From: Fidelibacterota bacterium
GTDB taxonomy: Bacteria; Fidelibacterota; Fidelibacteria; Fidelibacterales; DSDE01
Length of the DNA: 64,000 nt
NCBI GenBank assembly: GCA_046735395.1
Contig: JBJKQR010000020.1
Location: forward strand, 23,926-87,925
Direction of reading: 5' to 3'
In this document: positions 6,273-41,185 of the stretch, piece by piece
Layout of the letters: each line of letters begins with the position of its first letter
Position numbering within the stretch: position 1 is the first letter of the stretch
Notes under the pieces: generated by a model
Told to the model about the DNA's origin: nothing
The model's input: only the letters and a program-made list of their open reading frames with translations
Database searches by the model: none
Made by a program: the position numbers and the translations under genes

Positions 6273-6274
6273 CC

Positions 6275-8226: not shown

Positions 8227-8230
8227 GATC

Positions 8231-9454: not shown

Positions 9455-9514
9455 GCGCCGGGCTCATCATTATAATGTTTCCAAGGTTCCCGTAATAACA
9501 GGGAGATTTTTCAG

Positions 9515-18812: not shown

Positions 18813-18838
18813 ATAGATTATATCCTGTTTATAACAAT

Positions 18839-18864
18839 AAAGGGCTGCTTTCGGGCGGCCCTTT
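18839..18864. terminator. Terminator hairpin between convergent ppdK and the TrmH gene
   Basis: AAAGGGCTGCT-TTCG-GGCGGCCCTTT. Confidence 0.75.
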
Positions 18865-18972
18865 GTCGTTATGCCCTGTTTTTCCGAATTTGATTCGTTT
18901 TTCGGGAGCACGATAAAAATATATTGTGGCGTGCTCCGTTTAATGCTCCAGGAATATTATAAAAGGAATATC

Positions 18973-19734: not shown

Positions 19735-19755
19735 GGCCGAATTTAGCGAATCAAA

Positions 19756-19784
19756 TTGAAACAAATAATGAAAAACCGTAAATT
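19756..19784 (+). promoter_or_regulatory. Putative sigma70 promoter of tmRNA
   Basis: TTGAAA-N17-TAAATT, 20 nt before the mature 5' end. Confidence 0.65.
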
Positions 19785-19804
19785 AGGGCGCTATTTGGCA
19801 AATT

Positions 19805-20154
19805 GGGGGCGTCAAGGTTTCGACGGGACAGCCAGGTGCTGATGAAAGCGTGCCGAGGAGTTCGGGTTCTCTCGTTAAACACCTGAAAAAAAAATAAATG
19901 CTGATAATTACGCATTCGCAGCTTAATCTAAACTAGTTGCCGTCCGCTCTGCTTTGCTTTCGGAGCAGAGGCCGGGCGTCAAACACGGAAGCTCGTTTCC
20001 TGCTGAGTCCGGCTTCAGGAAATTAAATTCACGGACTGGCCTGCTCTGATTTTGTCCGCTTTGGCGGAGCAGGTAAGACGCACAAAGCAGACTGCGCACG
20101 GAGATGTCAAAGGTGTCTCTGTTTCGGACCCCGGTTCAATTCCGGGCGCCTCCA
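19805..20154 (+). ncRNA. ssrA: tmRNA
   Basis: 5' GGGGGCG..GGTTTCGAC pairs with 3' CGCCTCC-A, giving the G3:U alanine identity pair. T-arm CCCGGTTCAATTCCGGG; internal tag frame. CCA is not fully encoded (CCACT). Confidence 0.95.
19900..19926 (+). other. tmRNA proteolysis tag frame ADNYAFAA*
   Basis: GCT GAT AAT TAC GCA TTC GCA GCT TAA after an A-rich AAATAAAT resume context. Confidence 0.9.
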
Positions 20155-20196
20155 CTCGGTCTTCGTTCGAGCGGCAGCGGGAACGAAGATCGACCG

Positions 20197-20282
20197 CGTC
20201 GTAGTCCGTCGGCAGGCGGACGAAGACGGGTCCGGCCAAAACTTGCCCGAACACCACCCCGACCGCTTCGGTCGATTGAAAT
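20197..20282. repeat. 86-bp palindromic repeat, copy 1
   Basis: CGTCGTAGTCCGTCGGCAGGCGGACGAAGACG...CGACCGCTTCGGTCGATTGAAAT. Confidence 0.95.
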
Positions 20283-20351
20283 AGAATGAACAGGGAGGCT
20301 CGAATGGTCTTCTTTTATGAGTTTCAGTTCGACTTCTCTGCTGAACCAATT

Positions 20352-20437
20352 CGTCGAAGTCCGTCGGCAGGCGGACGAAGACGGGTTCGGCCAAAACTTG
20401 CTCGAACACCACCCCGACCGCTTCGGTCGATAGAAAT
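20352..20437. repeat. 86-bp palindromic repeat, copy 2 (4 substitutions)
   Basis: Starts 155 bp after copy 1. Confidence 0.95.
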
Positions 20438-20506
20438 AGAATGAATGACGAGGCTCGAATGGTCTTCGTTTATGAGTTTCAGTTCAACTTCTCTGCTGAA
20501 CCTATT

Positions 20507-20592
20507 CGTCGTAGTCCGTCGGCAGGCGGACGAAGACGGGTCCGGCCAAAACTTGCCCGAACACCACCCCGACCGCTTCGGTCGATTGAAAT
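20507..20592. repeat. 86-bp palindromic repeat, copy 3
   Basis: Starts 155 bp after copy 2; matches copy 1. Confidence 0.95.
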
Positions 20593-20613
20593 AGAATGAA
20601 CAGGGAGGCATAA

Positions 20614-20853
20614 ATGTACTTCATTTATGTGCTTCAGTCTGAAAAGTATCGGGAACGTTTTTACACCGGATCCACGGAAGATCCGGAAGAACGGCTGAAA
20701 AAACATAATGAGGGTGGCTGCACTTACACGAAAGCCTTCCGGCCCTGGAAATTTAAGAATATTATTGGATTTGAAACAAAGGCCAAAGCTCAATCATTTG
20801 AGCGTTATCTGAAAACGGCCTCAGGGCGAGCTTTTGCCAAGCGGCATTTTTAA
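20614..20853 (+). CDS. Minimal GIY-YIG nuclease (UPF0213/Slx1-like), 79 aa
   Basis: FIYVL...FYTGST...RLKKHN...YTK..RPW...FERYLK; GGGAGG RBS. Confidence 0.9.
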   Translation: MYFIYVLQSEKYRERFYTGSTEDPEERLKKHNEGGCTYTKAFRPWKFKNIIGFETKAKAQSFERYLKTASGRAFAKRHF

Positions 20854-20862
20854 TGGCGGGAT

Positions 20863-20948
20863 CGTCGTAGTCCGTCGGCAGGCGGACGAAGACGGGTCCG
20901 GCCAAAACTTGCCCGAACACCATCCCGACCGCTTCGGTCGATTGAAAT
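20863..20948. repeat. 86-bp palindromic repeat, copy 4
   Basis: Starts 9 nt after the GIY-YIG stop; one substitution relative to copy 1. Confidence 0.95.
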
Positions 20949-21064
20949 TAAGTCAGTGATAAGCTATGCATGATCTTCACCAAGAGGCATAGAGTTGTTT
21001 CGGTGCAAAAATGTAAAATTATTAAACCGCGTAGAAACAAGGTATCGAAAGCGGGTGTGGTAAA

Positions 21065-22177
21065 TCAGGAATTATTATTTTTTGATGATTCGTTGGATTG
21101 TTTCAGCTGTGACACTTCCGGATAATATTTTTCCAGACAGTCGGGGCAGAGACCGTGGCTGAATTCCGCTTCCGAATGAGCAGAGATATATTCCTCAAGC
21201 TGAGCCCAGTAACCGGAATCATCACGAACCTTTTTGCAGTGCATGCATACGGGGATAATTCCCTTCAAGGTCTTGATTTCATCCAGCGCCTGTGTCAATT
21301 CGCTGATGAGCTGTTCCTTTTCCTGTTCCGCTGCAATCCGCTGTTTAATTTCTTCATTCAGTGCGTGGTTTTTTCCATCCAGTTCACGGAAAATGAGGAT
21401 GAATGGTTCCTGAAATCCGGTTTGAATGAGGGCCTGGTAAATTAAAATATAACTGAAGACTTTGAAAAAGTGGCCGATAAGATTTGAAAATCCATAATTG
21501 CTGATATAAAAGGTAAAAGCCAGTTCGGAGATAATTGTAAAAATAATCGAGTACAGGAGCAGCTTGAAGACTCTTGAGTCGAAGGAGGCACGGTTTCGGT
21601 AGAGAAGGAAGATACTTGCCACAAAGACAGCGCTGATAAGGTATTCGCTGAGAATCTTGAAGGGAGTCAGGCCGCTTCCTTCAATGAAGCAGATGGGAAA
21701 GATCTTCCAGTCAAAGACGGAAAATATCAGAACAAGCGTTATGATCAGATACACCGCCCCGGTCTGCAGCATGTTGGGAATTCTGTTTCGTTTCAGAAAA
21801 AAGAAGGCGATGAGCAGGGACAGGCTTTCCATGTATCGGGCGCCGATCCAAAGCTGGTTTGCATAAAAATCGTAATCGGTAAAAATATTCATGCCCTTAT
21901 AGGAAAGCGTATGCATGAGATCAATGAATCCGATAAACAGATAGGCCGTTCCGATAAAAACGAGATATGGATTTTTCAGATAACGGCGGGCATTCCAGGC
22001 GATCATGAATACGGCGGCAGCAACAGTTATGGAAAAGAATTCGGTGAAAACATGGAAAAGCAGGTAATTATACAAAGATATGATGTAGAGCGGCGTAATC
22101 CAGAGGAGATTGTACAGAACAATCCGTGCTAAATTCGGCCCTTCTTCATCAAATTGTTCTCTCAGACGTTGTATCAT
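21065..22177 (-). CDS. MASE3 membrane sensor with coiled coil and C-terminal Cys/His motif
   Basis: YLLFHVFTEFFS, IDLMHTLSYKGM, QLWIGAR; tail CMHCKKVRD...SHGLCPDC. GGGAGG RBS before ATG 22177. Confidence 0.8.
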   Translation of the reverse strand: MIQRLREQFDEEGPNLARIVLYNLLWITPLYIISLYNYLLFHVFTEFFSITVAAAVFMIAWNARRYLKNPYLVFIGTAYLFIGFIDLMHTLSYKGMNIFTDYDFYANQLWIGARYMESLSLLIAFFFLKRNRIPNMLQTGAVYLIITLVLIFSVFDWKIFPICFIEGSGLTPFKILSEYLISAVFVASIFLLYRNRASFDSRVFKLLLYSIIFTIISELAFTFYISNYGFSNLIGHFFKVFSYILIYQALIQTGFQEPFILIFRELDGKNHALNEEIKQRIAAEQEKEQLISELTQALDEIKTLKGIIPVCMHCKKVRDDSGYWAQLEEYISAHSEAEFSHGLCPDCLEKYYPEVSQLKQSNESSKNNNS

Positions 22178-22289
22178 GCCCCCTCCCACTTATTCCGATG
22201 CGTGAATATATCAATACGCCCAGTGCATAAAAAGCAAAATTTAAGCGCTCTTTCATTAATATTGGAGAATGGTCAGAAAATAGAAATGT

Positions 22290-22913
22290 TTATTTATGGT
22301 AATATTGATCACATATTTCATTGATCAGGTCAGAGATTATCCCGGCTGCGGAATCACCCGGGCATGTTGTGTTAGGATTAATTTCACGGTGTAAGGCAAT
22401 TTGGCCGGGAGACAGTTCCAGGGAATCACAGAGACAGATAAGCAGTGTTTTTAACGCATCAAGCTGCTGCTTCCGGGGTTGCTGATGAGAGAAATTTCCG
22501 CAGAGGCAGATTCCCGCCTGTCCCCAATCCGGATCACGGACGAGAGCGGATTCGGGTGGCTGGTCTAAAATTCCATGACGTATCCGGGCTGCCATGATGT
22601 CCGCCAGGCTGTCACGGCCGGCGTGAGCCCCCATATATTCGAGTAACCGTCCCTGCCAGACCCGGCCATCATTATCGATGATGAAATGGTAGGCGATATC
22701 ACTGTAATGCATCGTTTTCACCTGATATGACTGGATTTCCTTTGGTCCCATTCGAGCGCGGAAGGCCGAGTGGTGAATGATAATCCCGGAATATCGAAAG
22801 TTCCTAATATGATATTCGTACAGACCGTCAGCCGGCCTTGATGCATGCCAGCTTTCCCGGGGTGAAATAAAGGGCGGCTTTTCGGTACAGGAACTGAATA
22901 GTAAGAACAGCAA
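22290..22913 (-). CDS. N-acetylmuramoyl-L-alanine amidase (Amidase_2/PGRP family), probable lipoprotein
   Basis: IIIHHSA, DIAYHFII, GAHA, GICLCGNF, LHRE...TCPG; lipobox FSSC. The 5' end is probably at 22954 across a frameshift. Confidence 0.8.
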   Translation of the reverse strand: MLFLLFSSCTEKPPFISPRESWHASRPADGLYEYHIRNFRYSGIIIHHSAFRARMGPKEIQSYQVKTMHYSDIAYHFIIDNDGRVWQGRLLEYMGAHAGRDSLADIMAARIRHGILDQPPESALVRDPDWGQAGICLCGNFSHQQPRKQQLDALKTLLICLCDSLELSPGQIALHREINPNTTCPGDSAAGIISDLINEICDQYYHK

Positions 22914-22950
22914 TGCGAATATACGGAAAGAGTGAAAAAAAATTTATAAA

Positions 22951-23556
22951 TCATCGTGGGAAGATATGCCGCAGACGTGAGGATTCGAAAAATTCATGAG
23001 CCCTGTCTCCGATGGAATTCCGGTAATCATAGGCGGGGACTTTTTTTCCGAAGTCAATGCCGCGGCTGTAGATAGCCGCAAGTTGGGTGATATCCGGCGG
23101 AAAGCCGTATACATTTGAATATTCGGATTTGATCAAAGTGAGGTATTGAAGTGCCAAGTCCAGATTACAGCTGTCATTCTGCAGAAGGGCAACGAGCTGA
23201 TGTCTGGATGGAAGGGTTGTTTGAGACAGAACAGAATCCTTTCCGGAGAGAAGCCAGATGGCCGTACTCACCTTGACCTGACAGAGGCCGACGGACGGAT
23301 CGTAACCCAGTTCTGCCCGTATTTGATCGTAGTAATCAAAGAAATTAACATTCTCATACCGTTCACCATAAATCACAGCGGAAAGTGTCCGTGGTGTAAT
23401 CACCGAATCGACGCAGATGGATTGAATCATGGAACTGCGTGAGGTCAACAGACGAAGGCATCGCTTTTCGGATGAAAATTCACGGCAGCTTACCGCGATC
23501 GTACAACAGATGAGGAATGAAAAACCGGTAACCCGGAGAATGCGTTTCATATTCAT
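22951..23556 (-). CDS. Lysozyme-like/lytic transglycosylase-like lipoprotein
   Basis: Lipobox AVSC; AVIYGE (candidate catalytic Glu), SVGLCQV (GLMQ-like), NLDLALQYL, AAIYSRG (AYNxG-like). Start 23556 has a GGGAGG RBS and ATGA overlap. Confidence 0.6.
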   Translation of the reverse strand: MNMKRILRVTGFSFLICCTIAVSCREFSSEKRCLRLLTSRSSMIQSICVDSVITPRTLSAVIYGERYENVNFFDYYDQIRAELGYDPSVGLCQVKVSTAIWLLSGKDSVLSQTTLPSRHQLVALLQNDSCNLDLALQYLTLIKSEYSNVYGFPPDITQLAAIYSRGIDFGKKVPAYDYRNSIGDRAHEFFESSRLRHIFPR

Positions 23557-24083
23557 TGTCGTTCCCTCCCCTGCAACAGACGCAGAGCTGCCGGCAGGTG
23601 AGTCAGCGTTTCGGCGCGCTGCTCCGCGTCGAGCGGCCAGGAACAAAGACAAAAACCTTCCGCATTCAGGAGAAAGGCCCGCGGGACACCATCATTTTGC
23701 AGAGTTCTGATCAGAGAATCAGGGATACATTGATCATAAAAATCAGCACCCGGTCCACCCGGCTTCAACAGATCTTCGTGGTTGCTGCTGAACAGGATAC
23801 GGCAGGAGTCGTTGATGGAGCGAAGCGAATTCATATACGTCAATTCGCGGCGGAGACCCGAAAAGGACGTATTCCCGAACCTAAAAACAAGCACCGGGCG
23901 GTGAGGGTTATTATTGCGGAGAATTTGCCGCCCAAGATAATTTGCGGCGGCCTCTGAAGAATCCTGATAAAAATTCAGACGATTTTTGTAAAGACGCTGC
24001 CGGGAACGATATTCAGAATTCAGAAACATGAGAACGAGAATAAAGAGGGCGGCGGCGATGTTGAGAAATCTTCCGGAATTCAT
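23553..24083 (-). CDS. Membrane-anchored hypothetical protein, possible thioredoxin-like fold without CxxC
   Basis: N-terminal TM helix; PVLVFRF...GVPRAFLLNAEG pattern; translationally coupled on both sides. Confidence 0.5.
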   Translation of the reverse strand: MNSGRFLNIAAALFILVLMFLNSEYRSRQRLYKNRLNFYQDSSEAAANYLGRQILRNNNPHRPVLVFRFGNTSFSGLRRELTYMNSLRSINDSCRILFSSNHEDLLKPGGPGADFYDQCIPDSLIRTLQNDGVPRAFLLNAEGFCLCSWPLDAEQRAETLTHLPAALRLLQGRERQ

Positions 24084-24787
24084 GCCAGGATTCCCTCATT
24101 GAAATAATGATTCAGATCCTGTACCGAACCGGCATTTCCCGGTTGATCATAGAGAATTCGCCCTTCTTCCATGAGGATGAAGCGGCCGGAGGTAGCGAGG
24201 ACATTTTCCAGATTATGGCTGGAAATAAAATGGGTTGTTCCCCGTTCACGATTTTCGCGGAGCAGGATCTTTTCGAAGGCATTCTTTGATCCGGGATCAA
24301 GGCTGGCAAAGGGTTCATCCAGAATCAGCAATTTGGGCTGGCGAAGCAGGGCGCCCACCAAACCCACTTTTTTCCGGTTCCCGGCTGACAGGTCGCGGAT
24401 ATAGCGGGACCCGAAAAGAATTTCTTCGGGTATGAAACCTTCGAAGGAATCCAGATCACTTTTCCATTCAGAGGATTCTTTTCCGCTGACCTGCATCAGA
24501 AATGAAAAGTATTCCCAGGGTGTGAGAAAGGTGATGAGCCAGCTTTCATCCAGATAGGATGCGGTGAGTGTCTTCCAGCCGGTATGTCCCTGAACGGCTC
24601 CACCATTGATAAAAACGGATCCGGAATCCGCCTTTATCAGATCCAGAATCAGGCGAAGCAGAGTTGTCTTGCCGGCGCCGTTATTGCCGCAGAGAGCTAC
24701 GGTTTCACCAGGCTGCAGCCGCAGTTCGGGAATGGTCAGCTCAAAATGGGGCCGATACGTTTTTATAAGGTCTTCAATGAATAACAT
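24080..24787 (-). CDS. ABC transporter ATP-binding protein
   Basis: GNNGAGKTT, LSAGNRKK, LILDEPF, SSH. Confidence 0.92.
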   Translation of the reverse strand: MLFIEDLIKTYRPHFELTIPELRLQPGETVALCGNNGAGKTTLLRLILDLIKADSGSVFINGGAVQGHTGWKTLTASYLDESWLITFLTPWEYFSFLMQVSGKESSEWKSDLDSFEGFIPEEILFGSRYIRDLSAGNRKKVGLVGALLRQPKLLILDEPFASLDPGSKNAFEKILLRENRERGTTHFISSHNLENVLATSGRFILMEEGRILYDQPGNAGSVQDLNHYFNEGILA

Positions 24788-24809
24788 AACACCCTTTCAA
24801 TTTTTGGGG

Positions 24810-26234
24810 TTAAAAAATGGTGTACTTCGATTGTTCATACCGTCGTCCGGCACTTCGGATAACGGGCTTCATGAACAGGAAGCCGATTACGCCCGGAAGA
24901 GCGAGGATACTTAGCACGAGGGGAAGTCCAAATATGGGAGTTAATTTTCTAACAAGCATTGGAAAAGCAATGCACATAAACCCAAGCGGGATGAAACGAA
25001 AAAATACAGCTGTACGACTTGAAAAAGGCTGAAACCGAAGCAATGAAAAAAACTCAAGATGCCTGCTGCTGTACCAAATGATATAAGGCAGGTATGCGCC
25101 ATGAGCGGTAACCCAGGTGCTTATAAAGACAAGGGTGGTGATTGGTTGCGGATACTTTGCAATCGATACCGCAGTATAAACGACCAAAGCGATAATTGCA
25201 TCGGCCGAGCAGGATATGATTACCGCACGCCGCACGTAGGTTTCATAATTTTGAATGAGCACATGGACCAGCGGATAAAAGGAGTTTTCCCAGCTGAACA
25301 AACAGGTTACAATTGTACATGATTGGAAGGTAATCGGTGTAACTAAGAAATAATGGAAATAATTCGACAACTCCCCCTGGCTTAAAAAATAAAAGCAAGG
25401 AAGGATAAGGAACGTAATGTGATTTAAAATTGGAATTTTATTGCGGGTGATCATGCGCCAGAGTATCCTGGTGGGAGACATGCCGCGAGAATTAAGAAGT
25501 TTAGAGCGATTGATCTTCGCATAAGGTGCGCCGGAATTCCGGCCGTCATAGGGGGAGAGGCGGGATTGGTAAATCCATATTGTGGATGACGCGATGCATA
25601 TCAGGGTGACAAAAAGCAGAAGAATGAGGTGGTTCAGACTGAGAAAATCAAGGATAGCCGGGGGAATCTCACTTATCTTTTGAACGAAAAAAATCAGGCC
25701 AGCGATCATAGATATCATCACTGTCCATCTGATAATCTGAGATGGAATCAGAAAGCCAAGCCGATACAGGAAATGATCCGATAACAGGATGATAAACAGC
25801 AAAGCTGCCAGGCCGGTCAGAAGGGCGGAGGGACCGAGCAGCAGGGCCGAGAGCAAAAAGCAGATGAAGGGAGGAAGAAGAGTCAAAAGATTATAGAGGG
25901 TCATGAGGGCCAGGCTTTCATGGAACAGAACGAGGCTGCGCCGGGTAAAGGGGAGAATCAGATAGGGCATCATTCCGCTGTATAAAGCTTTCTGAAAGAA
26001 TAGGCGAAATGTCTGGTCAATGATCATTGAGATGATGATAATCTGAAGGAGGGTTTTTGTTTCGAGTTCCGTGACCGTATTTTGAAACAGCGTTACGAGG
26101 AAGGGAAATCCGTTCGTAATCTGAAGGATATAAACAAGGCCGAAAACGGCTAAAAATCCAAATTTCCAGATATCCCCGCGCCGGGGTGAACGAAGCGTGG
26201 CCGCGACCATATGTCGAAAAAAGTGAATAACCAT
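24810..26234 (-). CDS. Multi-pass membrane protein, copy A (probable ABC permease or immunity protein)
   Basis: 474 aa, highly hydrophobic, PYLILP motif, precedes the ABC ATPase; paralog of 27115-28554. Confidence 0.7.
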   Translation of the reverse strand: MVIHFFRHMVAATLRSPRRGDIWKFGFLAVFGLVYILQITNGFPFLVTLFQNTVTELETKTLLQIIIISMIIDQTFRLFFQKALYSGMMPYLILPFTRRSLVLFHESLALMTLYNLLTLLPPFICFLLSALLLGPSALLTGLAALLFIILLSDHFLYRLGFLIPSQIIRWTVMISMIAGLIFFVQKISEIPPAILDFLSLNHLILLLFVTLICIASSTIWIYQSRLSPYDGRNSGAPYAKINRSKLLNSRGMSPTRILWRMITRNKIPILNHITFLILPCFYFLSQGELSNYFHYFLVTPITFQSCTIVTCLFSWENSFYPLVHVLIQNYETYVRRAVIISCSADAIIALVVYTAVSIAKYPQPITTLVFISTWVTAHGAYLPYIIWYSSRHLEFFSLLRFQPFSSRTAVFFRFIPLGFMCIAFPMLVRKLTPIFGLPLVLSILALPGVIGFLFMKPVIRSAGRRYEQSKYTIF

Positions 26235-26244
26235 ATCCTGTCCG

Positions 26245-26276
26245 AAAATCAGCCGCCCGAAAGCCGGACGGCCGAT
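26245..26276 (-). terminator. Stem-loop after the peptide genes, copy A
   Basis: ATCGGCCGTCCG-GCTTT-CGGGCGGCTGAT-TTT. Confidence 0.7.
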
Positions 26277-26292
26277 AAGGTTTCACGTGTGT

Positions 26293-26484
26293 TTAATCAA
26301 GGCATATTCCAACAAAGGCACCCGCACCCAGAGTCCATGCTATAAAAGCAGGCGGGTAAATGACCCAGGGGGCGGTGACTAACAGCCCTGCTACAAGAGT
26401 TATACAAATATCCTCCCGGTTATCGCCGATGAATTCAGAGACTCCTCCACCTGCGATATCATTTGCATCAAGGATTGATTTCAT
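26293..26484 (-). CDS. Double-glycine precursor peptide P3A (63 aa)
   Basis: Leader MKSILDANDIAGG; hydrophobic two-Cys core; AAGGGA RBS. Confidence 0.85.
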   Translation of the reverse strand: MKSILDANDIAGGGVSEFIGDNREDICITLVAGLLVTAPWVIYPPAFIAWTLGAGAFVGICLD

Positions 26485-26656
26485 GATTGTGTCCCTTTCT
26501 GAGTTTCAGTCCGGCTCGGCGCCAGCATAGGACCACACCGGCCCGAGACAGGTAAGGCAGAGTCCACAGCAGCGGCAGCGCCACATCTTTGACACAGTCG
26601 CTGAAGCGGCAGCCGCAGCAGTTGTTTTTCATTGTTTGTTTTGACAGGGTGTGCAT
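26468..26656 (-). pseudogene. Degraded precursor peptide P2A
   Basis: Paralog of P2B, but NTCGGG has become NNCCGC (GG lost) and a net 5-nt deletion frameshifts the C-terminus into P3A. Confidence 0.7.
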
Positions 26657-26665
26657 CGCGTTCTC

Positions 26666-26842
26666 CTAATCCCAGCTGCCAAGAAGGCGGCCGAAATCGT
26701 AGCCGGTACAGATCAGCCCGATCGTCGTTACGACGACATTCAAAGTCAGAAGGCCCACGGCGGTAATACCGAGACAGATGGTGCCCAATTCTATCTCACC
26801 GCCCTGAATGGCGGCCAGTTCATTCTTGTCGAGATTTTTCAT
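26666..26842 (-). CDS. Double-glycine precursor peptide P1A (58 aa)
   Basis: Leader MKNLDKNELAAIQGG; core EIELGTICLGITAVGLLTLNVVVTTIGLICTGYDFGRLLGSWD; AAGGA RBS. Confidence 0.9.
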   Translation of the reverse strand: MKNLDKNELAAIQGGEIELGTICLGITAVGLLTLNVVVTTIGLICTGYDFGRLLGSWD

Positions 26843-27105
26843 GATTTTTCCTTTCCTTTTGATGTTTCCCGTCCGTTTCCGGGGCCTCCTGACCAGACCG
26901 ATCCTCACCTCCTTTCCCGGAAGTCTGACCCGTCGGCCATCAGAAGCGAACAGCAAGGCGTTCAGCGGAGCCACAGCACCAAAAAGTCGGTTTTTTCATT
27001 TGTTTCAATTTGTCCGAAGCGGACTGAGGAATTGTACAGTAATTCAGGAAAGGCCAGCTCGAAATGGGTCCGAAACGGTTTATTAAGGCCTTTAACGAAT
27101 AACAT
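26843..27105 (-). pseudogene. Chimeric remnant at the duplication junction
   Basis: MLFVKGLNKPFRTHFELAFPEL (ABC ATPase start) fused at ~27037 to NSSVRFGQIET (3' part of the 29173-29673 gene), then frameshifted. Confidence 0.85.
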
Positions 27106-27114
27106 AACACTCTT

Positions 27115-28554
27115 TCAATTTTTAAGGTTAAAAATAGTGTACTTCGATTGCTCGTAACGCCTTCCGGCGCTTCGGATAACGGGCTTCATGAACAGGAACC
27201 CGATTAGGCCCGGAAGAGCGAGGATGGCAAGTGCCCATGGAGCGCCCATAAGGGGAATTAATTTTTTAAAGATAAAGGGTAATAGAACGACTATAATGAC
27301 TATAGGGATTAATCGGATATAATCAATGGACTTATAAGAAACAGGTTGCCATCGAATCAGAGAAAAAAACATCAGATGTTTGCTGTTATACCAAATCAGA
27401 TAAGGCAGAAATAAACCGTGGGTGATGATGTAGGCGCTGGCAAAGGCAAGAACCGTAAAGGGTTCGGGATGGCCGGCAACAAGCGCCCCGAAAAAAAACA
27501 TGAAAGCCAAGAACATATCTATAATACAGGAGAGATACAGGGCACGTCGGCCATAGGCTACATAATCCCGGAGGAGGATATGGACCAGGGGATAAAAGGA
27601 ATTCTCCCAGCTGAACAAATATATTATTAAAAAGGCAGATAAAAAGGTCATCAGTATGATATACAGAAAACAGAGCTGTGTGGAATACATTTCCCGGCCC
27701 AGGAAATACGGAACCGTAATAATGAAAATAAATAAAAGGTTATTGATTAAGAGGACCCTGTTGCGAATCAGCATGCGCCAGATCAGCCCGTAGAGAGATA
27801 TCGTGTGATTACGAAGACCTTTCGTGTGCTTCATCTTTGCCTCGCGGACGCGGGTTTTCTGATGGTCATAGGGGGAGAGGCGGGACTGATAGATCCATGC
27901 AGTTGAGATGGCGATACAGATCAGGATGACGAAAACCAGAAGAGTGAGGTGACCCAGGCTGAGAAAATCAAGGATGGCCGGGGGAATCGCACTTATCTTT
28001 TGAACGAAAAAAAACAGGCAAACGATCATAGATATCATCACTGTCCATCTGATAATCTGAGATGGAATCAGAAAGCTGAGCCGATACAGGAAATGATCCA
28101 GTAAAAAGGCCAGACTCAGCAAAAGGGCCAGTCCGGTCAGAAGGGCAGAGGGGCCGAGCAGCAGGGCTGAAAGCAAAAAACAGATGAGGGGAGGAATGAG
28201 TGTTAATAGATTGTAGAGGGTCATGAGGGCCAGGCTTTCATGGAAAAGGACGAGGCTGCGCCGTGTAAAGGGAAGAATCAGATAGGGCATCATTCCGGTG
28301 AGGGACGCTTTTTGAGAGAACAGGCGAAATGACTGGTCGATGATCATCGAGATGGTGATAATCTGAAGGAGGGTTTTCGCTTCGAGTGTTGTAGACGTAT
28401 TTTGAAACAGGGCTGCAAGGAAAGGAAATCCGTTCGTAATCTGAAGGATAAAAACAAGGCCAAAAACGGCTGAAAATCCAAATTTCCAGACATCTCCGCG
28501 CCGGGGTGAACGAAGCATGGCTGCAACCAGATGTTGAAAAAGGTGAATGACCAT
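27115..28554 (-). CDS. Multi-pass membrane protein, copy B (probable ABC permease or immunity protein)
   Basis: 479 aa; paralog of 24810-26234. Confidence 0.7.
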   Translation of the reverse strand: MVIHLFQHLVAAMLRSPRRGDVWKFGFSAVFGLVFILQITNGFPFLAALFQNTSTTLEAKTLLQIITISMIIDQSFRLFSQKASLTGMMPYLILPFTRRSLVLFHESLALMTLYNLLTLIPPLICFLLSALLLGPSALLTGLALLLSLAFLLDHFLYRLSFLIPSQIIRWTVMISMIVCLFFFVQKISAIPPAILDFLSLGHLTLLVFVILICIAISTAWIYQSRLSPYDHQKTRVREAKMKHTKGLRNHTISLYGLIWRMLIRNRVLLINNLLFIFIITVPYFLGREMYSTQLCFLYIILMTFLSAFLIIYLFSWENSFYPLVHILLRDYVAYGRRALYLSCIIDMFLAFMFFFGALVAGHPEPFTVLAFASAYIITHGLFLPYLIWYNSKHLMFFSLIRWQPVSYKSIDYIRLIPIVIIVVLLPFIFKKLIPLMGAPWALAILALPGLIGFLFMKPVIRSAGRRYEQSKYTIFNLKN

Positions 28555-28564
28555 ATCCTGTCCG

Positions 28565-28596
28565 AAAATCAGCCGCCCGAAAGCCGGGCGACTGAT
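28565..28596 (-). terminator. Stem-loop after the peptide genes, copy B
   Basis: ATCAGTCGCCCG-GCTTT-CGGGCGGCTGAT-TTT. Confidence 0.7.
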
Positions 28597-28612
28597 GAGT
28601 GTTTAAGTGAGT

Positions 28613-28807
28613 TTAATCAAGGCAAAAACCAGCAAAGACGCCGGCACCTACAGCCCATCCAAGTGCGACAGGAGCCATGTAAACTATAGGCGCGGATGCC
28701 ATCAGGCCGGATGCCAGGCTCATACAGAGGTCTTCGTGATTGTCGCGGAGGAAATCACCAATTCCACTTCCTCCGGCAATGTCTTCTGTATTGATTATTG
28801 TTTTCAT
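28613..28807 (-). CDS. Double-glycine precursor peptide P3B (64 aa)
   Basis: Leader MKTIINTEDIAGG; hydrophobic two-Cys core; GGAG RBS. Confidence 0.85.
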   Translation of the reverse strand: MKTIINTEDIAGGSGIGDFLRDNHEDLCMSLASGLMASAPIVYMAPVALGWAVGAGVFAGFCLD

Positions 28808-28834
28808 AATTCTTCTCCATGTTATCTTTGAGTT

Positions 28835-28990
28835 TCAGTCCGGCTCGGTGATACGGTAGCACAGGACCACCCCGGCCAGAGACAGGTAAGGCAGGGTCCA
28901 CAGAAGCGGCAGCGCCACATCTTTGACACAATCGCTGAAGATGCCGCCGCCGCAGGTGTTTTTCATTGTTTGTTTTGACAGGGTTTTCAT
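28835..28990 (-). CDS. Double-glycine precursor peptide P2B (51 aa; not in ORF track)
   Basis: Hand translation MKTLSKQTMKNTCGG|GIFSDCVKDVALPLLWTLPYLSLAGVVLCYRITEPD; GAGG RBS. Confidence 0.8.
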   Translation of the reverse strand: MKTLSKQTMKNTCGGGIFSDCVKDVALPLLWTLPYLSLAGVVLCYRITEPD

Positions 28991-28999
28991 GGTATGCCT

Positions 29000-29176
29000 C
29001 TATTCCCATTCGCGAAGAAAGCGGCCCAAACTGTAGCCGGTGCAGAAGAGTCCGATCGCGGTGAGGGCAGGATTCACCAAAACAACTCCTGCAAGACCGG
29101 CCAGGAGGCAGATCGTCCCCACATCCAGTTCGCCGCCCTGAATGGCGGCCATTTCATTTTTGTCGAGATTTTTCAT
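29000..29176 (-). CDS. Double-glycine precursor peptide P1B (58 aa; not in ORF track)
   Basis: Hand translation MKNLDKNEMAAIQGG|ELDVGTICLLAGLAGVVLVNPALTAIGLFCTGYSLGRFLREWE; ATGA overlap with the upstream gene. Confidence 0.9.
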   Translation of the reverse strand: MKNLDKNEMAAIQGGELDVGTICLLAGLAGVVLVNPALTAIGLFCTGYSLGRFLREWE

Positions 29177-29673
29177 GATTGTTCCTTTCCTTTTGATGTT
29201 TCCCGTCCGTTTCCGAGCCTCCTGACCAGACCGATCCTCACCTCCTTTCCCAGATGTCTGACCAGTCGGCCATCAGAAGCGAACAGCCAGGCGTCAAGCG
29301 GAGCCCCTGCACCAAAAAGTCGGGTTTTTTCAGTTGTTTCAATTTGTCCGAAGCGGACAGAAGGATTATGCCTTAGCCGTGTCCAGGCATAGTAATGATT
29401 ATTTTTGAAAAATCCGGGTGTCGTACACAGCAGGTACACATTCAGTGAAGCCAGATCATCGCTGTGGTTTTCCAGATAATAGATATTCCGGATACAGTTG
29501 CAATGCGTATCAAAGAACACGATCAGTACGGGATCTGTATTCCCATTCCTGACCGGAATTTCCAGATTGCCGGCTGTCCGATAACTGAATTCCGGGATTT
29601 TTTCACCCTGCTGAATCCTGTCTGTATGGCTGCAGGCGCTGATCAGGATACATAAACAGAATAGGACAGACAT
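29173..29673 (-). CDS. Thioredoxin-like (TlpA/redoxin) lipoprotein with CxC motif
   Basis: Lipobox ISAC; GEKIPEFSY, PVLIVFFDTHCNC, FGAGAP..WLFASDGRLV. Start uncertain. Confidence 0.65.
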   Translation of the reverse strand: MSVLFCLCILISACSHTDRIQQGEKIPEFSYRTAGNLEIPVRNGNTDPVLIVFFDTHCNCIRNIYYLENHSDDLASLNVYLLCTTPGFFKNNHYYAWTRLRHNPSVRFGQIETTEKTRLFGAGAPLDAWLFASDGRLVRHLGKEVRIGLVRRLGNGRETSKGKEQS

Positions 29674-29684
29674 GCCGAATTTTC

Positions 29685-30341
29685 CTAATTTAAAAGCGGA
29701 GTTTTGGGCAATAACAGATTGAACCCCCATTGGAAAATGAGAGAAATGGCCCACAATCCCAACAGGATCAGGGCAGCATCGGACAGGGAACTTTTGCCGG
29801 ATTTATTCAGTCTGTAGGCGACGAAAGCGATCCAGAGCAGGGTAAACAGGCTGATCCTGCCCATGAGAGCCCAGGATTGGAGGGTATAGGAGAGCGGATC
29901 CAGAAATGCCTGGATGGAAAGGAAAGACTGCTGGACGAGCTTGTTTGTATAATTTTGAACAGGGATGGTCAGCAGCCTGATAAAGGCAAAGAATTTCTGA
30001 GACAGGGGAATGAATTCGGCAAGCAGGCAGATATTCAGCAGGTCACGGTAGGGGATTTCCTTCTGCCTGAGCAAGAATACAAGCTGAATGATAAGGGCTA
30101 CGAAAAGAATTTTGATTCCGGTGGTAATGGGATTGAAGAAGTAGGTGAGCATGGACATTTTTTCTATCATGAACATGACGGAATCGGATTGGCCCTGAGG
30201 CAGCCCCGCATCCTGCATGATGGGTGACCGGGACACGCGCTGAAAGAGAAATTCCATATAAAACCAGTTCGTGAAAGTGATTCCCAGTAAAAGCGCAAAT
30301 GCATTCATCGCTACTGTTTTTTTCCTTTTCGGCTCATTCAT
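29685..30341 (-). CDS. Yip1-like membrane protein
   Basis: About 5 TM helices with a topology similar to 4249-4938 (e.g. ISLFTLLWI versus VDIFRLWKI). Confidence 0.55.
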   Translation of the reverse strand: MNEPKRKKTVAMNAFALLLGITFTNWFYMEFLFQRVSRSPIMQDAGLPQGQSDSVMFMIEKMSMLTYFFNPITTGIKILFVALIIQLVFLLRQKEIPYRDLLNICLLAEFIPLSQKFFAFIRLLTIPVQNYTNKLVQQSFLSIQAFLDPLSYTLQSWALMGRISLFTLLWIAFVAYRLNKSGKSSLSDAALILLGLWAISLIFQWGFNLLLPKTPLLN

Positions 30342-32400
30342 GTCTGTCTCCTATTGTAATACACGGTGTGTTGTTTCGAAAAAGTGCCGGATCATGGCTG
30401 ATAATCAGGACCAGGTGTGTTGCCGCATAGTTTTCCAGCAGGGCCTGAATCAGTGGACGTGATTCGGTATCCAGCGAGCTGATTCCCTCATCCACTATCA
30501 GCAGCCGGGGTTGGGAAAGAAGAGCCCGGATCAGGCCGATGATAAATTTTTCTCCGCCGGACAGCCGCTGGCCTTCTTCGCTGAGCAGCGTCATCAATCC
30601 AAGTTTGAATCGGCCGATGAACCAGGAAAAATCATAGCTTTTAAAAAAGCGTTCCAATTCATTCAGGGGCCTGTTCCCCAGGCCGATCTGGATGTTTTCC
30701 AGCAGGGTTCCGTTAAAAATATAAATATCCTGAGGAATGAGACGAACAGCAGCGCGAAGCAGCTCAATTGAAAGATTTTTTAGTGAGCAGCCATTCAGAA
30801 GAATCTGACCCTGATAGTCGGTGTAAATGCCGCACAGAAGCCGGGAAAGAGTACTTTTTCCACTTCCATTTCGTCCCTGGAGAAAATGAAGTCCGTTATT
30901 TTCCAGGGAGAAGGTGACATGATGAAAGAGCCGGGGAGACTTGGGGTAGCTGAAATTCAAACCGGATACGCGAAGGGACGTGGCCTGATCGTGAAAGGTT
31001 TGAAGCCCGTCCTGTTTTTCCGATGGGTGGAGGAGGATGTCCCGCAGTCTGACATAGGCGATGCGAGCCTGCTGCAGATCGCCGATTCCGCTCATGATGA
31101 GCTGAAGCGCAGGAATCATTCCGGCCAGCAGGCTGTAACTGCCCATGAACTGGCCAAGCGGGAGTTTTCCCTGAATCACTTCACGGACGCCGAGAAACAG
31201 AAAAAGGATGCTTAAGAGGGCGGACAGGCCCTCGATGCTCATGCCGTAGTCTGCCGCAAAGATGGAAAGGTTTTTTCGAAGGTCTTGAAATTGACGGAAA
31301 TACTCGTGGTTTTTCATGTTGAAGTGGTGATCGGCGCCATTTCGCCGGATGGATTCCTGGCCGTGAATGATATCGATATACGAGGACTCCAGATCCGCAT
31401 AACTTTTCATCAGCCGGTTATTGCGGGTTTTAAGCCCCGGTATGAAATAGATGCCTGTGAAAACGTACAGCAGCAGAAGCCCGCAGACCGGTACGACGAT
31501 GCCCGGGCTCATGATGATCATATATCCGAGACTGCTGAGAAGAAGTATGCCCTGTATCAGAAAATCATTGCAGACCTGTACCACGGCTCTCTGGATGCGC
31601 AGGGCATCCTGCATGCGGGCGGTGAGATCCCCGGTTTTCCGGGATTCAAAAAAATGCTGAGGCAGCGCCAGGAGTTGGGAAATAAAGTCTGTATGCAATT
31701 CCAGATTGAATCGTTCACTGAAGGATGCGAGCATGCGAATTCTGGCATTTCCGGCAAGGGCCCGGAGCAGCATCACGATGGCAAAGAACGCCAGAAGTGG
31801 TAAAAATTCATGAAAGTTTGCGGTCGGGATGTACACATCGATGGCCTGCTGAATGAGCAGGGCGGTCACAAGGCCGGAGATGCTGAGAAACAGGGCCAGA
31901 ACTACACTCTGTACCAGCCAGGAACTCGTATTTGCCAGGCGCGGACGGATCCACTGAAACCAGCCGGGAGGGGCCTTTCGTTCGAGGGGGCCGGCCGGTT
32001 CAAGCAGCAGAACAATTCCTTCCTTCCAGATGCTGAGGAAATTCTGATGAGACAGGGAATGAACAGATTTCCCGGGGTCGGCGACCTTTACTTTGTTCTG
32101 GCCGATATTCAGAATGATGAGATAATGGTGCAGGCCGGAATTCAGAATGACGTGAGCGATACAGGGCAGATTTTCTTCAGCCAGTTCCTGAAGTGAGCCC
32201 CGGGCCGCGCGGGTGGTGAATCCATAATGTTCCGCGGCTTCCAGCAGATCGGACAGGCGGGTTCCGCTGCGGTCCGTCCGGCAGCGGGCTCTCATTTCCA
32301 CGAGAGAACCGTCTCCACCATGGTAGCGAAGCAGGGACAGCAGGCAGCAGGGCCCGCAGTCTGTTTCATTGACCTGTTTTTCAAGAGGAAACCGGAACAT
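30334..32400 (-). CDS. Peptidase C39-containing ABC transporter (PCAT, bacteriocin exporter type)
   Basis: QVNETDCG (catalytic Cys), HHYLI, VADP; FFESRKTGD; GRNGSGKST, LSGGEK, LIVDE, ISH; AGGAGG RBS. Confidence 0.95.
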   Translation of the reverse strand: MFRFPLEKQVNETDCGPCCLLSLLRYHGGDGSLVEMRARCRTDRSGTRLSDLLEAAEHYGFTTRAARGSLQELAEENLPCIAHVILNSGLHHYLIILNIGQNKVKVADPGKSVHSLSHQNFLSIWKEGIVLLLEPAGPLERKAPPGWFQWIRPRLANTSSWLVQSVVLALFLSISGLVTALLIQQAIDVYIPTANFHEFLPLLAFFAIVMLLRALAGNARIRMLASFSERFNLELHTDFISQLLALPQHFFESRKTGDLTARMQDALRIQRAVVQVCNDFLIQGILLLSSLGYMIIMSPGIVVPVCGLLLLYVFTGIYFIPGLKTRNNRLMKSYADLESSYIDIIHGQESIRRNGADHHFNMKNHEYFRQFQDLRKNLSIFAADYGMSIEGLSALLSILFLFLGVREVIQGKLPLGQFMGSYSLLAGMIPALQLIMSGIGDLQQARIAYVRLRDILLHPSEKQDGLQTFHDQATSLRVSGLNFSYPKSPRLFHHVTFSLENNGLHFLQGRNGSGKSTLSRLLCGIYTDYQGQILLNGCSLKNLSIELLRAAVRLIPQDIYIFNGTLLENIQIGLGNRPLNELERFFKSYDFSWFIGRFKLGLMTLLSEEGQRLSGGEKFIIGLIRALLSQPRLLIVDEGISSLDTESRPLIQALLENYAATHLVLIISHDPALFRNNTPCITIGDRHE

Positions 32401-32449
32401 GGCCGATATGCCTCCTCGTTGATTCAGATTGGTTTCAGGGTGCAGAATC

Positions 32450-32478
32450 AGTATAGGGTTTTTGCCGGCTCAATGCAA
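32450..32478 (-). promoter_or_regulatory. Near-consensus sigma70 promoter of the peptide operon
   Basis: TTGCAT-N17-TATACT. Confidence 0.65.
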
Positions 32479-32612
32479 ATTTTTTTCTATTGGTGGGGCG
32501 TTTTCTGCCGCCAGCTGACAGGGCGGATGATGGATCCATCGGCCGTTTCATCATTTTGAATCAGCGGGAAAATTCCATAAATTTCCTAAAAAAACGGGAG
32601 CGGACACGATAA

Positions 32613-34037
32613 ATGGAATGGGAAATTGTCATAGGCCTTGAAGTCCATGTTCAGCTGAATCTGAAAACCAAGGCATTCTGCCGTTGTGAAAACCGCTATG
32701 GCGCGGAACCGAATACGCTGGTCTGTCCCGTGTGTCTGGGCTATCCCGGCGCGCTCCCGGTTCTCAATGAAGGATTGGTCCGTTATGCGATCCGGGCGGG
32801 CCTGGCGACACACAGCGGTATCCGGCTGCGAAGCACCTTCAGCCGGAAAAATTATTTTTACCCGGATCTGCCCAAGGGTTACCAGATTTCGCAGTACGAT
32901 GATCCGATCTGTTATGACGGACATATTGATATTGAAACGGATGAGGGACCCCGGCAAATCGGGCTCATCCGGATTCACATGGAAGAGGATTCGGGAAAGA
33001 GCATGCACGATGCGTCCCGCTCTCTCATTGATCTGAACCGCAGCGGCGTGGCCCTGCTGGAAATTGTCAGCAAACCGGATATCAAGAATCCGGCAGAAGC
33101 CTATGCCTACCTGACGACGCTGAAGCAGAGACTGAAATATATCGGTATATCAGACTGTAATATGGAGGAGGGTTCGCTGCGCTGCGATGCCAATGTGAGT
33201 GTTATGCCGAAGGGCAGCAGCACATTCGGAACCCGCACCGAACTGAAGAATCTGAATTCCTTCCGGAATGTGGAAAAGGCGCTGCAGTATGAAGCTGCAC
33301 GGCAGATTGAGGTCCTGGAATCGGGTGGCCGTGTGGATCAGTGTACGCTGCTGTGGGACGAAGGGAAACAATGTACGCGGACGATGCGGAGCAAGGAAGA
33401 CAGCCATGATTACCGCTATTTCCCGGAACCGGATCTGCTGCCGGTTCTGGTCAGTGAAGCGGATATTTCCGGAATCCGGGACCAACTTCCGGAAATGCCG
33501 GATGCCCGCGCCCGCCGTTTTGAGGACGTTCTGGGGCTGACGAAGGAGGATGCGGCGGTTCTGACCCAGGAAAAGGATACGGCGGATTATTTCGAGGCGG
33601 TGGCTGAACGCTGCGGGGATGCGCGCCTGGCCTCCAAGTGGATTCAGGGTGAAATGCTTCGCCTGGTCAGGGATCTGCGGCGGTCCATTGATGAAATTCC
33701 CGTATCTGCGGATGCGCTGGCGGAATTACTGGCCATTCTGCAGTCGGGTGATGTGACAGTGCAGACGGCCAAGGCGGTATTGGATGACATGGCGTCCAGC
33801 GGTGAATCGGCGGCCCACATCATTGAATCAAAAGGATTGAAGCAGATCGGCGGCGGCGGTGAGCTGGAAAAATTAATAGATGAAATTCTGGAAAACTGTC
33901 CATCGGAAGTGGAGAAATACCGCGCCGGAAAAGTTCAGCTGCTCGGATTCTTCATGGGACAGCTGATGAAGGCGACGCAGGGCCGGGCGGATCAGAAGGC
34001 GGCCCGGGAACTCTTTCAGAAAAAACTGGAGGCATAG
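32613..34037 (+). CDS. gatB: Asp-tRNA(Asn)/Glu-tRNA(Gln) amidotransferase subunit B
   Basis: VIGLEVHVQL, RKNYFYPDLPKGYQISQ, MEEGSLRCDANVS, YRYFPEPDL. Confidence 0.98.
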   Translation: MEWEIVIGLEVHVQLNLKTKAFCRCENRYGAEPNTLVCPVCLGYPGALPVLNEGLVRYAIRAGLATHSGIRLRSTFSRKNYFYPDLPKGYQISQYDDPICYDGHIDIETDEGPRQIGLIRIHMEEDSGKSMHDASRSLIDLNRSGVALLEIVSKPDIKNPAEAYAYLTTLKQRLKYIGISDCNMEEGSLRCDANVSVMPKGSSTFGTRTELKNLNSFRNVEKALQYEAARQIEVLESGGRVDQCTLLWDEGKQCTRTMRSKEDSHDYRYFPEPDLLPVLVSEADISGIRDQLPEMPDARARRFEDVLGLTKEDAAVLTQEKDTADYFEAVAERCGDARLASKWIQGEMLRLVRDLRRSIDEIPVSADALAELLAILQSGDVTVQTAKAVLDDMASSGESAAHIIESKGLKQIGGGGELEKLIDEILENCPSEVEKYRAGKVQLLGFFMGQLMKATQGRADQKAARELFQKKLEA

Positions 34038-41170: not shown

Positions 41171-41185
41171 TAAATGAGGATGATT

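Follow-up and report, generated by a model that had tools for sequence, protein, structure and literature searches.

A putative bacteroidetocin-type bacteriocin operon with a duplicated peptide-and-permease unit in a Fidelibacterota genome

Positions 22290-32400 of a 64,000-nucleotide (nt) stretch of contig JBJKQR010000020.1 from a Fidelibacterota bacterium (the whole stretch is hereafter the window) hold a single tightly packed row of minus-strand reading frames, which is probably a production-and-immunity operon for unmodified double-glycine (class II) bacteriocins of the bacteroidetocin type. Calls of open reading frames (ORFs) combined with Pfam and NCBIfam searches gave the order: peptidase-containing ATP-binding cassette (ABC) transporter (PCAT), Yip1-like membrane protein, thioredoxin-like lipoprotein, two successive units of three small genes (P1, P2 and P3) plus a DUF5687 permease, ABC ATPase, anchored protein, SLT/Tse3-like lipoprotein and Amidase_2 protein. 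All 15 reading frames, large and small, are intact, and neighbouring frames overlap by up to 17 nt or lie at most 58 nt apart, with the exception of one 272-nt duplication junction. An earlier reading made from the letters of this DNA (the sequence-only reading) had named these genes in this order, and all were recovered on the minus strand; its judgment that they form a system of a type it did not recognize did not hold, as a PCAT, a Yip1-like protein, a thiol oxidoreductase and a double-glycine peptide make up the published bacteroidetocin architecture (PMC6671954, in the part of that paper drawn on here). Its broader picture, in which several double-glycine peptides leave through a PCAT and no modification enzyme takes part, is supported at the level of predicted genes. 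No LanM, radical SAM, YcaO or glycosyltransferase family was matched in the region, as it had stated, and the 16 proteins scanned matched none of the families of enzymes that modify ribosomally synthesized and post-translationally modified peptides (RiPPs). A modified RiPP with tailoring enzymes (lanthipeptide, sactipeptide or YcaO-type) was rejected because the cluster has no such enzyme gene. What is notable about the locus is its host lineage, the duplication of peptides together with a permease, the DUF5687 pump and an oxidoreductase with a CxC motif.

Core genes and their bacteroidetocin relatives

As described in the part of the Coyne 2019 paper used here (PMC6671954), bacteroidetocin regions comprise four genes, for a five-transmembrane protein, a double-glycine-leader peptide, a thiol oxidoreductase and a PCAT; each of the three genes that were deleted was needed for activity, and the four suffice in Escherichia coli. 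The same portion proposes the toxins as class IIf and places them in Bacteroidales and other Bacteroidota, and the portion consulted of a second report has them acting against Bacteroidota with BamA as target (PMC8546649). For Tenacibaculum gallaicum DSM 18841, Supplementary Data 2 of PMC6671954 lists a peptide (RS13030), a transmembrane protein 42% similar to that of bacteroidetocin A (RS13025), a frameshifted oxidoreductase (RS13020) and a transporter (RS13005). The genome of that strain has a single match to our Yip1-like profile (E 2.3e-36), in a locus (L237) ordered peptides, Yip1-like, truncated thioredoxin-like, small ORF and PCAT, which fits the tags of the paper; the locus was equated with the published region by gene order, the frameshifted thioredoxin-like gene and the single family match, not by a locus tag in the record. 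The Yip1-like protein of the window matches the T. gallaicum protein at E 2e-7, and the sub-family profiles match with an hhalign probability of 99.3%. Because the two transmembrane proteins fall in one family, we read the window core as bacteroidetocin-type and conclude, from sequence comparison, that it is homologous to the bacteroidetocin core; the locus is thus a predicted bacteroidetocin-type class II variant, its class being assigned by the core genes and not by peptide sequence. The core genes are as follows.

30334-32400, minus strand, PCAT, 688 amino acids (aa), with C39 peptidase, ABC transmembrane and ATPase domains (Pfam)
29685-30341, minus strand, Yip1-like multi-pass membrane protein, 218 aa, overlapping the PCAT gene by 8 nt
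29173-29673, minus strand, thioredoxin-like lipoprotein with lipobox LISAC and C-N-C in the place of CxxC; GTG at 29754 is an alternative start

The PCAT matched Pfam Peptidase_C39 (E 2.8e-31), ABC_membrane (2.8e-28) and ABC_tran (3e-22), and scored 310 bits on NCBIfam bacteriocin_ABC, below the cut-off of 523.85 bits. It has Q9, C15, H92 and D108, which we take to be the catalytic residues of the C39 domain; across 79 PCATs, H92 and D108 were invariant and Q9 and C15 nearly so. The genome assembly (3.06 Mb, 84 contigs, 90.7% complete) holds one C39 domain and one Yip1-like gene only. The Yip1-like protein itself had no match to Pfam Yip1 (PF04893; cut-off 28.6 bits), yet the label is a fair one because 16 of 105 members of its family match that model at E ≤ 0.01 (best 4.8e-8). 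A search of 1.84 billion proteins with the family profile gave 602 representative clusters at E ≤ 0.001, with 217 of them at 1e-10 and 50 at 1e-30, and all 10 representatives that were looked up are unnamed or "hypothetical". A complex prediction of PCAT residues 1-450 with the Yip1-like protein scored 0.20 against a mark of 0.32, which counts neither way.

The core recurs in KSB1 and many Bacteroidota genomes. A DUF5687 scan of other phyla yielded two KSB1 clusters (L114/L125 and L115/L126), ordered PCAT, 224-aa membrane protein, CxxC thioredoxin-like protein, double-glycine peptides, several DUF5687-type permeases and ABC ATPase. Between the window and KSB1, identity was 37% for the PCAT (E 3e-152), 28% for the Yip1-like membrane protein (E 2e-23), 19% for the thioredoxin-like protein (E 5e-10; the KSB1 homologue has weak matches to Thioredoxin_2 and AhpC-TSA) and 42% for the ATPase (E 1e-62). 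The Yip1-like profile matched 54 of 401 evenly sampled Bacteroidota genomes. Neighbours were examined for 35 of these loci: 13 had a PCAT and a thioredoxin-like gene on the strand of the Yip1-like gene, 12 of them with double-glycine peptides. Strong matches correspond to clusters of PCAT, thioredoxin-like gene and double-glycine peptides, and weaker ones to a different, housekeeping-looking context. A scan with sub-family alignment A7 gave 80 loci, with a PCAT in 74, a thioredoxin-like gene in 80, a double-glycine peptide in 71 and all three in 65 (48 of the 51 loci with full flanks), proportions that are inflated because the query was built from loci preselected for PCAT context. Exactly two Cys occur in the core of 72 of the 126 double-glycine peptides in these 80 loci, and most peptides of the KSB1 and Bacteroidota loci are hydrophobic, rich in Gly and have a single Cys close to either end. 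One Bacteroidota locus (L163, G680:C11, 6884-12798) has four or five different double-glycine peptides around a split PCAT (450 + 263 aa).

Peptides and the tandem duplication

The part of the row between the thioredoxin-like gene and the anchored protein is laid out as follows.

29000-29176, minus strand, P1a, 58 aa: 15-aa double-glycine leader MKNLDKNEMAAIQGG and 43-aa hydrophobic core with two Cys
28835-28990, minus strand, P2a, 51 aa: small and hydrophobic, GGG at residues 14-16 followed by two Cys; Shine-Dalgarno-like GAGG upstream
28613-28807, minus strand, P3a, 64 aa: 13-aa double-glycine leader and 51-aa core with two Cys and a GxxxGxGxxxG stretch
28568-28596, minus strand, hairpin A between P3a and permease A: 12 bp, G+C-rich, then UUUU (-22.4 kcal/mol, z -4.7)
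27115-28554, minus strand, DUF5687-type permease A, 479 aa: Pfam 30.2 bits, below the 33-bit cut-off; at least nine hydrophobic segments
26843-27105, minus strand, duplication junction: ABC-ATPase 5'-end remnant (about 27043-27105) followed by a fused thioredoxin-like 3'-end remnant (26843-27033)
26666-26842, minus strand, P1b, 58 aa: the leader of P1a; core 47% identical to that of P1a (20/43 positions), whole peptide 59%
26468-26656, minus strand, P2b, 62 aa: C-G-C at the position of the G-G-G of P2a; frameshifted tail overlapping P3b by 17 nt
26293-26484, minus strand, P3b, 63 aa: second copy of P3
26248-26276, minus strand, hairpin B with UUUU, the second copy (-23.9 kcal/mol, z -3.6)
24810-26234, minus strand, DUF5687 permease B, 474 aa: Pfam PF18940, 46.1 bits, above the 33-bit cut-off
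24080-24787, minus strand, ABC ATPase: Pfam ABC_tran E 2.9e-22; likely partner of both permeases

The doubled module of the sequence-only reading proved to be real, its two units forming a tandem duplication (82% nucleotide identity over 1520 nt; period ∼2320-2334 nt). The start of the repeat falls within the 3' part of the thioredoxin-like gene (29367 matching 27033) and its end within the 5' part of the ATPase gene (27134-27043 matching 24816-24725), a size of 2.33 kb from mid-thioredoxin-like gene to the start of the ATPase gene. Because of these end points, the 272-nt gap after permease A is read as the scar of the junction and the ancestral operon as thioredoxin-like gene, P1, P2, P3, DUF5687 and ATPase; the remnants at the junction were seen both as repeat families (D7, D9 and D4) and in translation (ORFs 26962-27105 and 26666-26974). 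Through this 2.33-kb tandem duplication the operon gained a second, diverged set of peptides and a permease to go with it. The copies differ considerably, for the most part at synonymous sites, with 0.6-1.6 synonymous substitutions per site (dS) for P1, P3 and the permeases, and the ratio of nonsynonymous to synonymous substitution (dN/dS) is 0.42 for P1 (leader 0.10, core 0.49), 0.22 for P3 and 0.40 for DUF5687. The hairpin is kept in both copies, with three pair-preserving changes between them, and with its UUUU it is a candidate attenuator or terminator, which we read as an attenuator. Many bacteriocin operons have a comparable attenuator.

All six predicted mature peptides have exactly two Cys, one towards either end, and a thioredoxin-family lipoprotein is encoded beside them, so that the disulfide-closed peptides proposed by the sequence-only reading are sound as far as can be judged from the genes. 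The predicted cores of 43-51 residues are very hydrophobic, each with one transmembrane-length stretch; all six small ORFs have Shine-Dalgarno-like motifs upstream, and the P1a leader scored 17.0 bits on NCBIfam TIGR01847 (cut-off 15.7). Of the three small genes per unit, P1 and P3 alone carry double-glycine leaders in both copies; in correction of the sequence-only reading, the GGG of P2 is found in copy a only. Relative to P2a, P2b appears from the sequences to have a small deletion that shifts the frame of its tail, the dS of P2 (0.20) is far lower than that of its neighbours, and P2 has no relative among 10,573 small ORFs from ∼120 related loci. For these reasons P1 and P3 are counted as predicted exported peptides and P2 is not assigned; it may encode a third peptide or a small membrane protein with an immunity or accessory role, or be a stretch kept by some other constraint.

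It could be argued that P1 and P3 are the two halves of a two-peptide (class IIb-like) bacteriocin, with P2 as a small membrane immunity or accessory protein and the ABC pump secondary. Two different double-glycine peptides do lie side by side in each unit, P3 has the GxxxGxGxxxG stretch, and P2 has one transmembrane-length segment and no conserved double glycine. P1 has weak affinity to Bacteriocin_IIc (E 0.0046; PF10439, 17.3 and 17.0 bits), and P1b scored 17.1 bits on the lactobin A/cerein 7B model (TIGR03949), but neither family score reaches its cut-off (27.1 and 21.5 bits, respectively). Moreover, P2 is without relatives and frameshifted in the tail of copy b, and related loci hold from one to five peptides with no fixed pairing. 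We therefore regard a two-peptide bacteriocin as a rather unlikely description of the locus, and continue to treat it as a bacteroidetocin-type operon in which P1 and P3 would be exported.

The DUF5687 pump and the proposed mechanism

The two DUF5687 copies are 64% identical to each other. In 10 of 10 further DUF5687 loci a homologous ABC ATPase follows the permease, and since the pair is so kept we treat DUF5687 and ATPase as one transporter. Double-glycine peptides neighbour the pair in the window, the two KSB1 loci, L165 and L122, the last being a contig of the Marinisomatota phylum with the order double-glycine peptide, DUF5687, ATPase. From this partial association, and because the duplicated unit consists of peptides plus permease, we infer that the DUF5687 permease provides self-immunity. 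The family is thinly spread: DUF5687 scored above cut-off in 3 of 401 genomes of the phylum of the window, its own included; a word-indexed protein search for close relatives of the two window proteins returned only those two, pattern scans of genome contigs returned none and none was found in 40 relatives; and a literature search found no paper that names the family. The KSB1 clusters contain arrays of three or four half-size DUF5687-like proteins of 224-246 aa (L114, 7665-10649; L115, 9715-12541), each of which aligns with one half of the Pfam model alone, either N- or C-terminal; these one-half matches suggest that two halves fused to give rise to the full-length family.

In the proposed mechanism, P1, P3 and perhaps P2a would be made as precursors, which the C39 domain of the PCAT would cut after the double glycine while its ABC part carried the cores across the inner membrane. 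The Yip1-like membrane protein would be an accessory of production, a role carried over from its Bacteroides orthologue, which is needed for toxin activity. The thioredoxin-like lipoprotein would join the two near-terminal Cys of each core into one large disulfide loop. Each DUF5687 permease, together with the single shared ATPase, would form an ABC-2-like pump that keeps its cognate hydrophobic peptides off the membrane of the producer. The hairpin and UUUU after P3 in both copies would probably raise peptide mRNA over transporter mRNA, and the last three genes of the row would be an add-on from another recurrent envelope module. A more specific version, in which either unit of the duplication would be a toxin-immunity cassette complete in itself (a membrane toxin of two or three peptides, looped end to end by disulfide, plus a unit-specific DUF5687 permease working with the shared ATPase), is a tentative proposal that we hold to be somewhat doubtful.

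Several observations weigh against this picture, in addition to the preselection behind the 80-locus counts. Nine of the 10 further DUF5687 loci have no double-glycine peptide upstream, and since the characterized bacteroidetocin loci have no immunity gene (as far as the consulted part of PMC6671954 describes them), an immunity role for DUF5687 is without precedent. The oxidoreductase has CxC, as the sequence-only reading had noticed, in the form C-N-C, where all 18 other aligned members of its family have CxxC, and it may be impaired; the in-frame loss of one residue in C-N-C is not an obvious sequencing error. P2b has C-G-C and hence no double glycine. For passage across the outer membrane the operon has neither a membrane-fusion nor an outer-membrane component, 22290-32400 having given no match to an HlyD or OEP family. 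Finally, the P1, P2 and P3 cores have no significant relative among the 10,573 small ORFs; the sole signal for the cores is a C-terminal motif of P1, C[TAS][GA][YF]xx[GA][RK], which also occurs in peptides of four other loci, against 0.1 expected in shuffles.

If the DUF5687/ATPase pair handles something else and the PCAT core is solely an export route, the peptides might instead be secreted signals (pheromones or quorum cues) or factors of the producer membrane. C39 PCATs also export pheromones, a MASE3 sensor-domain protein is encoded downstream on the same strand, and DUF5687 with its ATPase does mostly occur without double-glycine peptides. However, the hydrophobic cores with their transmembrane-length stretch resemble pore-forming class II peptides and do not resemble short, soluble pheromones, Pfam and NCBIfam searches found no histidine kinase/response regulator pair in the operon, and the homologous core in Bacteroides makes toxins (PMC6671954, in the part drawn on here). 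A signalling function is accordingly improbable, and the bacteriocin reading is preferred.

Genomic setting, tail genes and comparison with known systems

The sequence-only reading had called the host a probable member of the Fibrobacterota-Chlorobiota-Bacteroidota (FCB) group. This placement is supported, because GatB, encoded next door, is closest to Marinimicrobia/Neomarinimicrobiota: it is 62-65% identical to nine records, eight of them titled as such, and ≤53% to the other 71 listed. An 863-aa protein at 41174-43765 (plus strand), with PKD domains, DUF5689 and the type IX secretion sorting domain Por_Secre_tail, agrees with an FCB-group host having type IX secretion. A literature search for bacteriocins of Marinimicrobia, judged by titles and abstracts, found nothing in print, and a sequencing-run search with 26200-30400 listed no run, RNA included. 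The features flanking the operon are as follows.

32450-32479, minus strand, sigma-70-like promoter candidate TTTGCA-18-TATACT (9/12 matches) ahead of the PCAT gene, within the 212 nt that separate it from the divergent gatB
21065-22189, minus strand, membrane protein with a MASE3 sensor domain (Pfam E 7.5e-90), a coiled coil and a C-terminal CxxC...CxxC tail, without a kinase domain; 100 nt downstream of the amidase gene and a possible operon regulator
20197-21017, four 155-nt direct repeats with hairpin-like segments inside them (70-93% identity to the reference copy): a tandem run of three, and one after a 79-aa GIY-YIG ORF (20614-20853, Pfam E 1.6e-14)
19805-20157, plus strand, transfer-messenger RNA (tmRNA) gene (Rfam 179.5 bits, tag peptide ADNYAFAA), the cluster lying ∼2 kb downstream

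The promoter-like site that the sequence-only reading had pointed out does exist, but such sites are no commoner here than in shuffled sequence (13 found against 14.7 expected). The tmRNA gene was the sole Rfam match over 18500-33000. tmRNA genes are known island integration sites; no repeat of the tmRNA 3' end was found, and the 155-nt repeats are not copies of that end. No island boundary can be drawn because tmRNA and gatB lie 0.55 and 1.19 Mb apart in two complete relatives. Nonetheless, the low G+C content (0.47-0.49 across 20-30 kb versus 0.50-0.56 in the flanks), the proximity of the tmRNA gene and the failure to find the cluster in 40 relatives are compatible with horizontal acquisition. 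On the same grounds the locus might be a recently transferred cluster that is decaying or silent, with its CxC oxidoreductase and P2b already damaged; the P2b frameshift, the duplication scars and the scarcity of DUF5687 in the phylum would fit such a history. Against this stand the intact state of all its reading frames, the retention of the C39 catalytic residues and a dN/dS that, with the copies substantially diverged, stays below 1 for P1, P3 and the permeases, so that we consider decay quite improbable and retain the view of a probable bacteriocin operon.

Three genes close the row.

23553-24083, minus strand, N-terminally anchored protein, 176 aa; its start overlaps the ATPase stop by 4 nt
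22951-23556, minus strand, SLT/Tse3-type lysozyme-like lipoprotein, 201 aa, with conserved Glu65 and a 4-nt overlap with its upstream neighbour
22290-22913, minus strand, Amidase_2 (N-acetylmuramoyl-L-alanine amidase): PF01510 67.5 bits versus a cut-off of 26, E 2e-18; lipobox-like N-terminus

The amidase named by the sequence-only reading was confirmed at well over its cut-off. Its SLT-like call fared less clearly: Glu65 and a G..Q motif are invariant in five homologues, the profile of these five matches the type VI secretion muramidase Tse3 in the PDB (E 3.4e-4, spanning the Glu and GxxQ motifs) and the Atlas gave 0.92-0.93 to Tse3_cat and SLT clusters, but the Pfam match (E 0.21) is below cut-off, so that a muramidase identity is reasonable but not firm. 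The anchored protein is possibly a thioredoxin fold without Cys, given its match to the thioredoxin-like family (hhalign E 3.3e-4, probability 38%) and Atlas leads of 0.87-0.89 to thioredoxin-like clusters. Single-sequence AlphaFold models were unusable for both proteins (predicted local distance difference test 37.8 for the SLT-like and 48.0 for the anchored protein), and a word-indexed search with either returned only the sequences of the window. Relatives of the tail genes were observed in a recurrent module, seen at L294 (G000:C54:1-7000, contig C54 of the window genome) and in a Bacteroidota genome at L279 (G754:C3:582-5642), which has TolB-like/DUF5128 beta-propeller lipoproteins, membrane-anchored CxxC thioredoxin-like proteins and MauE/DoxX, and carries either an Amidase_2 protein 45% identical to that of the window or an SLT-like homologue (34%). 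The tail genes themselves were in none of 118 related loci (a few places fetched twice, e.g., L163 and L193). Because of this absence and of the relatives in another module, we treat them as an add-on outside the definition of the system, contrary to the sequence-only reading, which had counted the peptidoglycan hydrolases in; the beta-propeller module looks like their source. That the hydrophobic peptides and the two hydrolases form an envelope-remodelling or lysis-type system acting on the producer's own wall is very improbable, for although the anchored-protein and SLT-like genes are translationally coupled to the ATPase gene by their 4-nt overlaps and the amidase gene follows after 37 nt, the hydrolases are missing from all those loci, have their relatives in a different module and can do without a peptide partner in export because each has a lipoprotein-type signal sequence.

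These results extend the bacteroidetocin-type export and maturation core past Bacteroidota, to KSB1 and a Marinimicrobia-like genome, and place the unnamed bacteroidetocin "TM protein" in a sizeable, divergent Yip1-like family. They also offer a testable first function for DUF5687, and with the tandem duplication nature provides a clean experiment on the co-diversification of peptide and pump. Were the cassette proposal true, DUF5687 would gain its first function, as a bacteriocin-immunity ABC permease, and bacteroidetocin-type loci would be seen to diversify by co-duplicating peptide and immunity in other FCB phyla.

Among known systems, YknWXYZ of Bacillus subtilis has a Yip1-type membrane protein beside an ABC system that handles a peptide toxin. 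The window cluster is alike in pairing a Yip1-type protein with an ABC system, but differs in that its Yip1-like protein scored 20.5 bits on YknW_fam (NF052650), far under the 110-bit cut-off. A closer YknWXYZ analogue lies ∼12 kb from the cluster at 4249-10750 (plus strand), where a canonical Yip1, OEP (TolC-like), HlyD-type adaptor, ABC ATPase and two MacB/FtsX permeases stand in a row as a YknWXYZ / MacAB-TolC-like pump, which might serve as the way through the outer membrane or give resistance to peptides. The KSB1 cluster is adjoined by a Yip1 homologous to this one (E 1e-19), together with OEP and an ABC ATPase (L114, 99-2272; L125, 3219-3926).

Class IIb two-peptide bacteriocins of Firmicutes (PMC2850506, in the part drawn on here) likewise have adjacent genes for two double-glycine-leader peptides and GxxxG-type motifs, but they belong to another cell envelope and are not known to have thioredoxin or Yip1 partners, and the family scores of the window peptides are below cut-offs. 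Class II microcins such as MccV, as far as the consulted portion of PMC12219008 describes them, share Gly-rich, hydrophobic, double-glycine-leader peptides of diderms, PCAT export and often one disulfide, but use a PCAT with a membrane-fusion protein (CvaA) and TolC, have small membrane immunity proteins and lack a Yip1-like or dedicated thioredoxin gene. A microcin operon was rejected, there being no membrane-fusion protein or TolC in the row; a KSB1 peptide matched Pfam MccV at E 0.008, below cut-off, and the window peptides had no MccV match.

The KSB1 clusters share the gene order of the window, double-glycine peptides with two or four Cys and multiple DUF5687-type permeases, at identities of 19-42%. 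They differ in that the permeases are mostly half-size, arrayed after all peptides and not duplicated with them, the thioredoxin-like protein has CxxC, an AraC-type regulator lies upstream and there is no hydrolase tail. The bacteroidetocin loci have in common with the window an adjacent C39 PCAT, transmembrane protein of the same family, thioredoxin-family gene and Cys-containing peptides with double-glycine leaders (15 aa in P1 and 13 aa in P3), and neither has a modification enzyme or a dedicated membrane-fusion or outer-membrane-factor gene. In contrast, the window has its PCAT first and three small ORFs per unit in two units, its cores have two Cys each where bacteroidetocins A and B have four, its oxidoreductase has CxC, it has a DUF5687/ABC-ATPase pump and a cell-wall hydrolase tail besides the core, and its host is Marinimicrobia-like.

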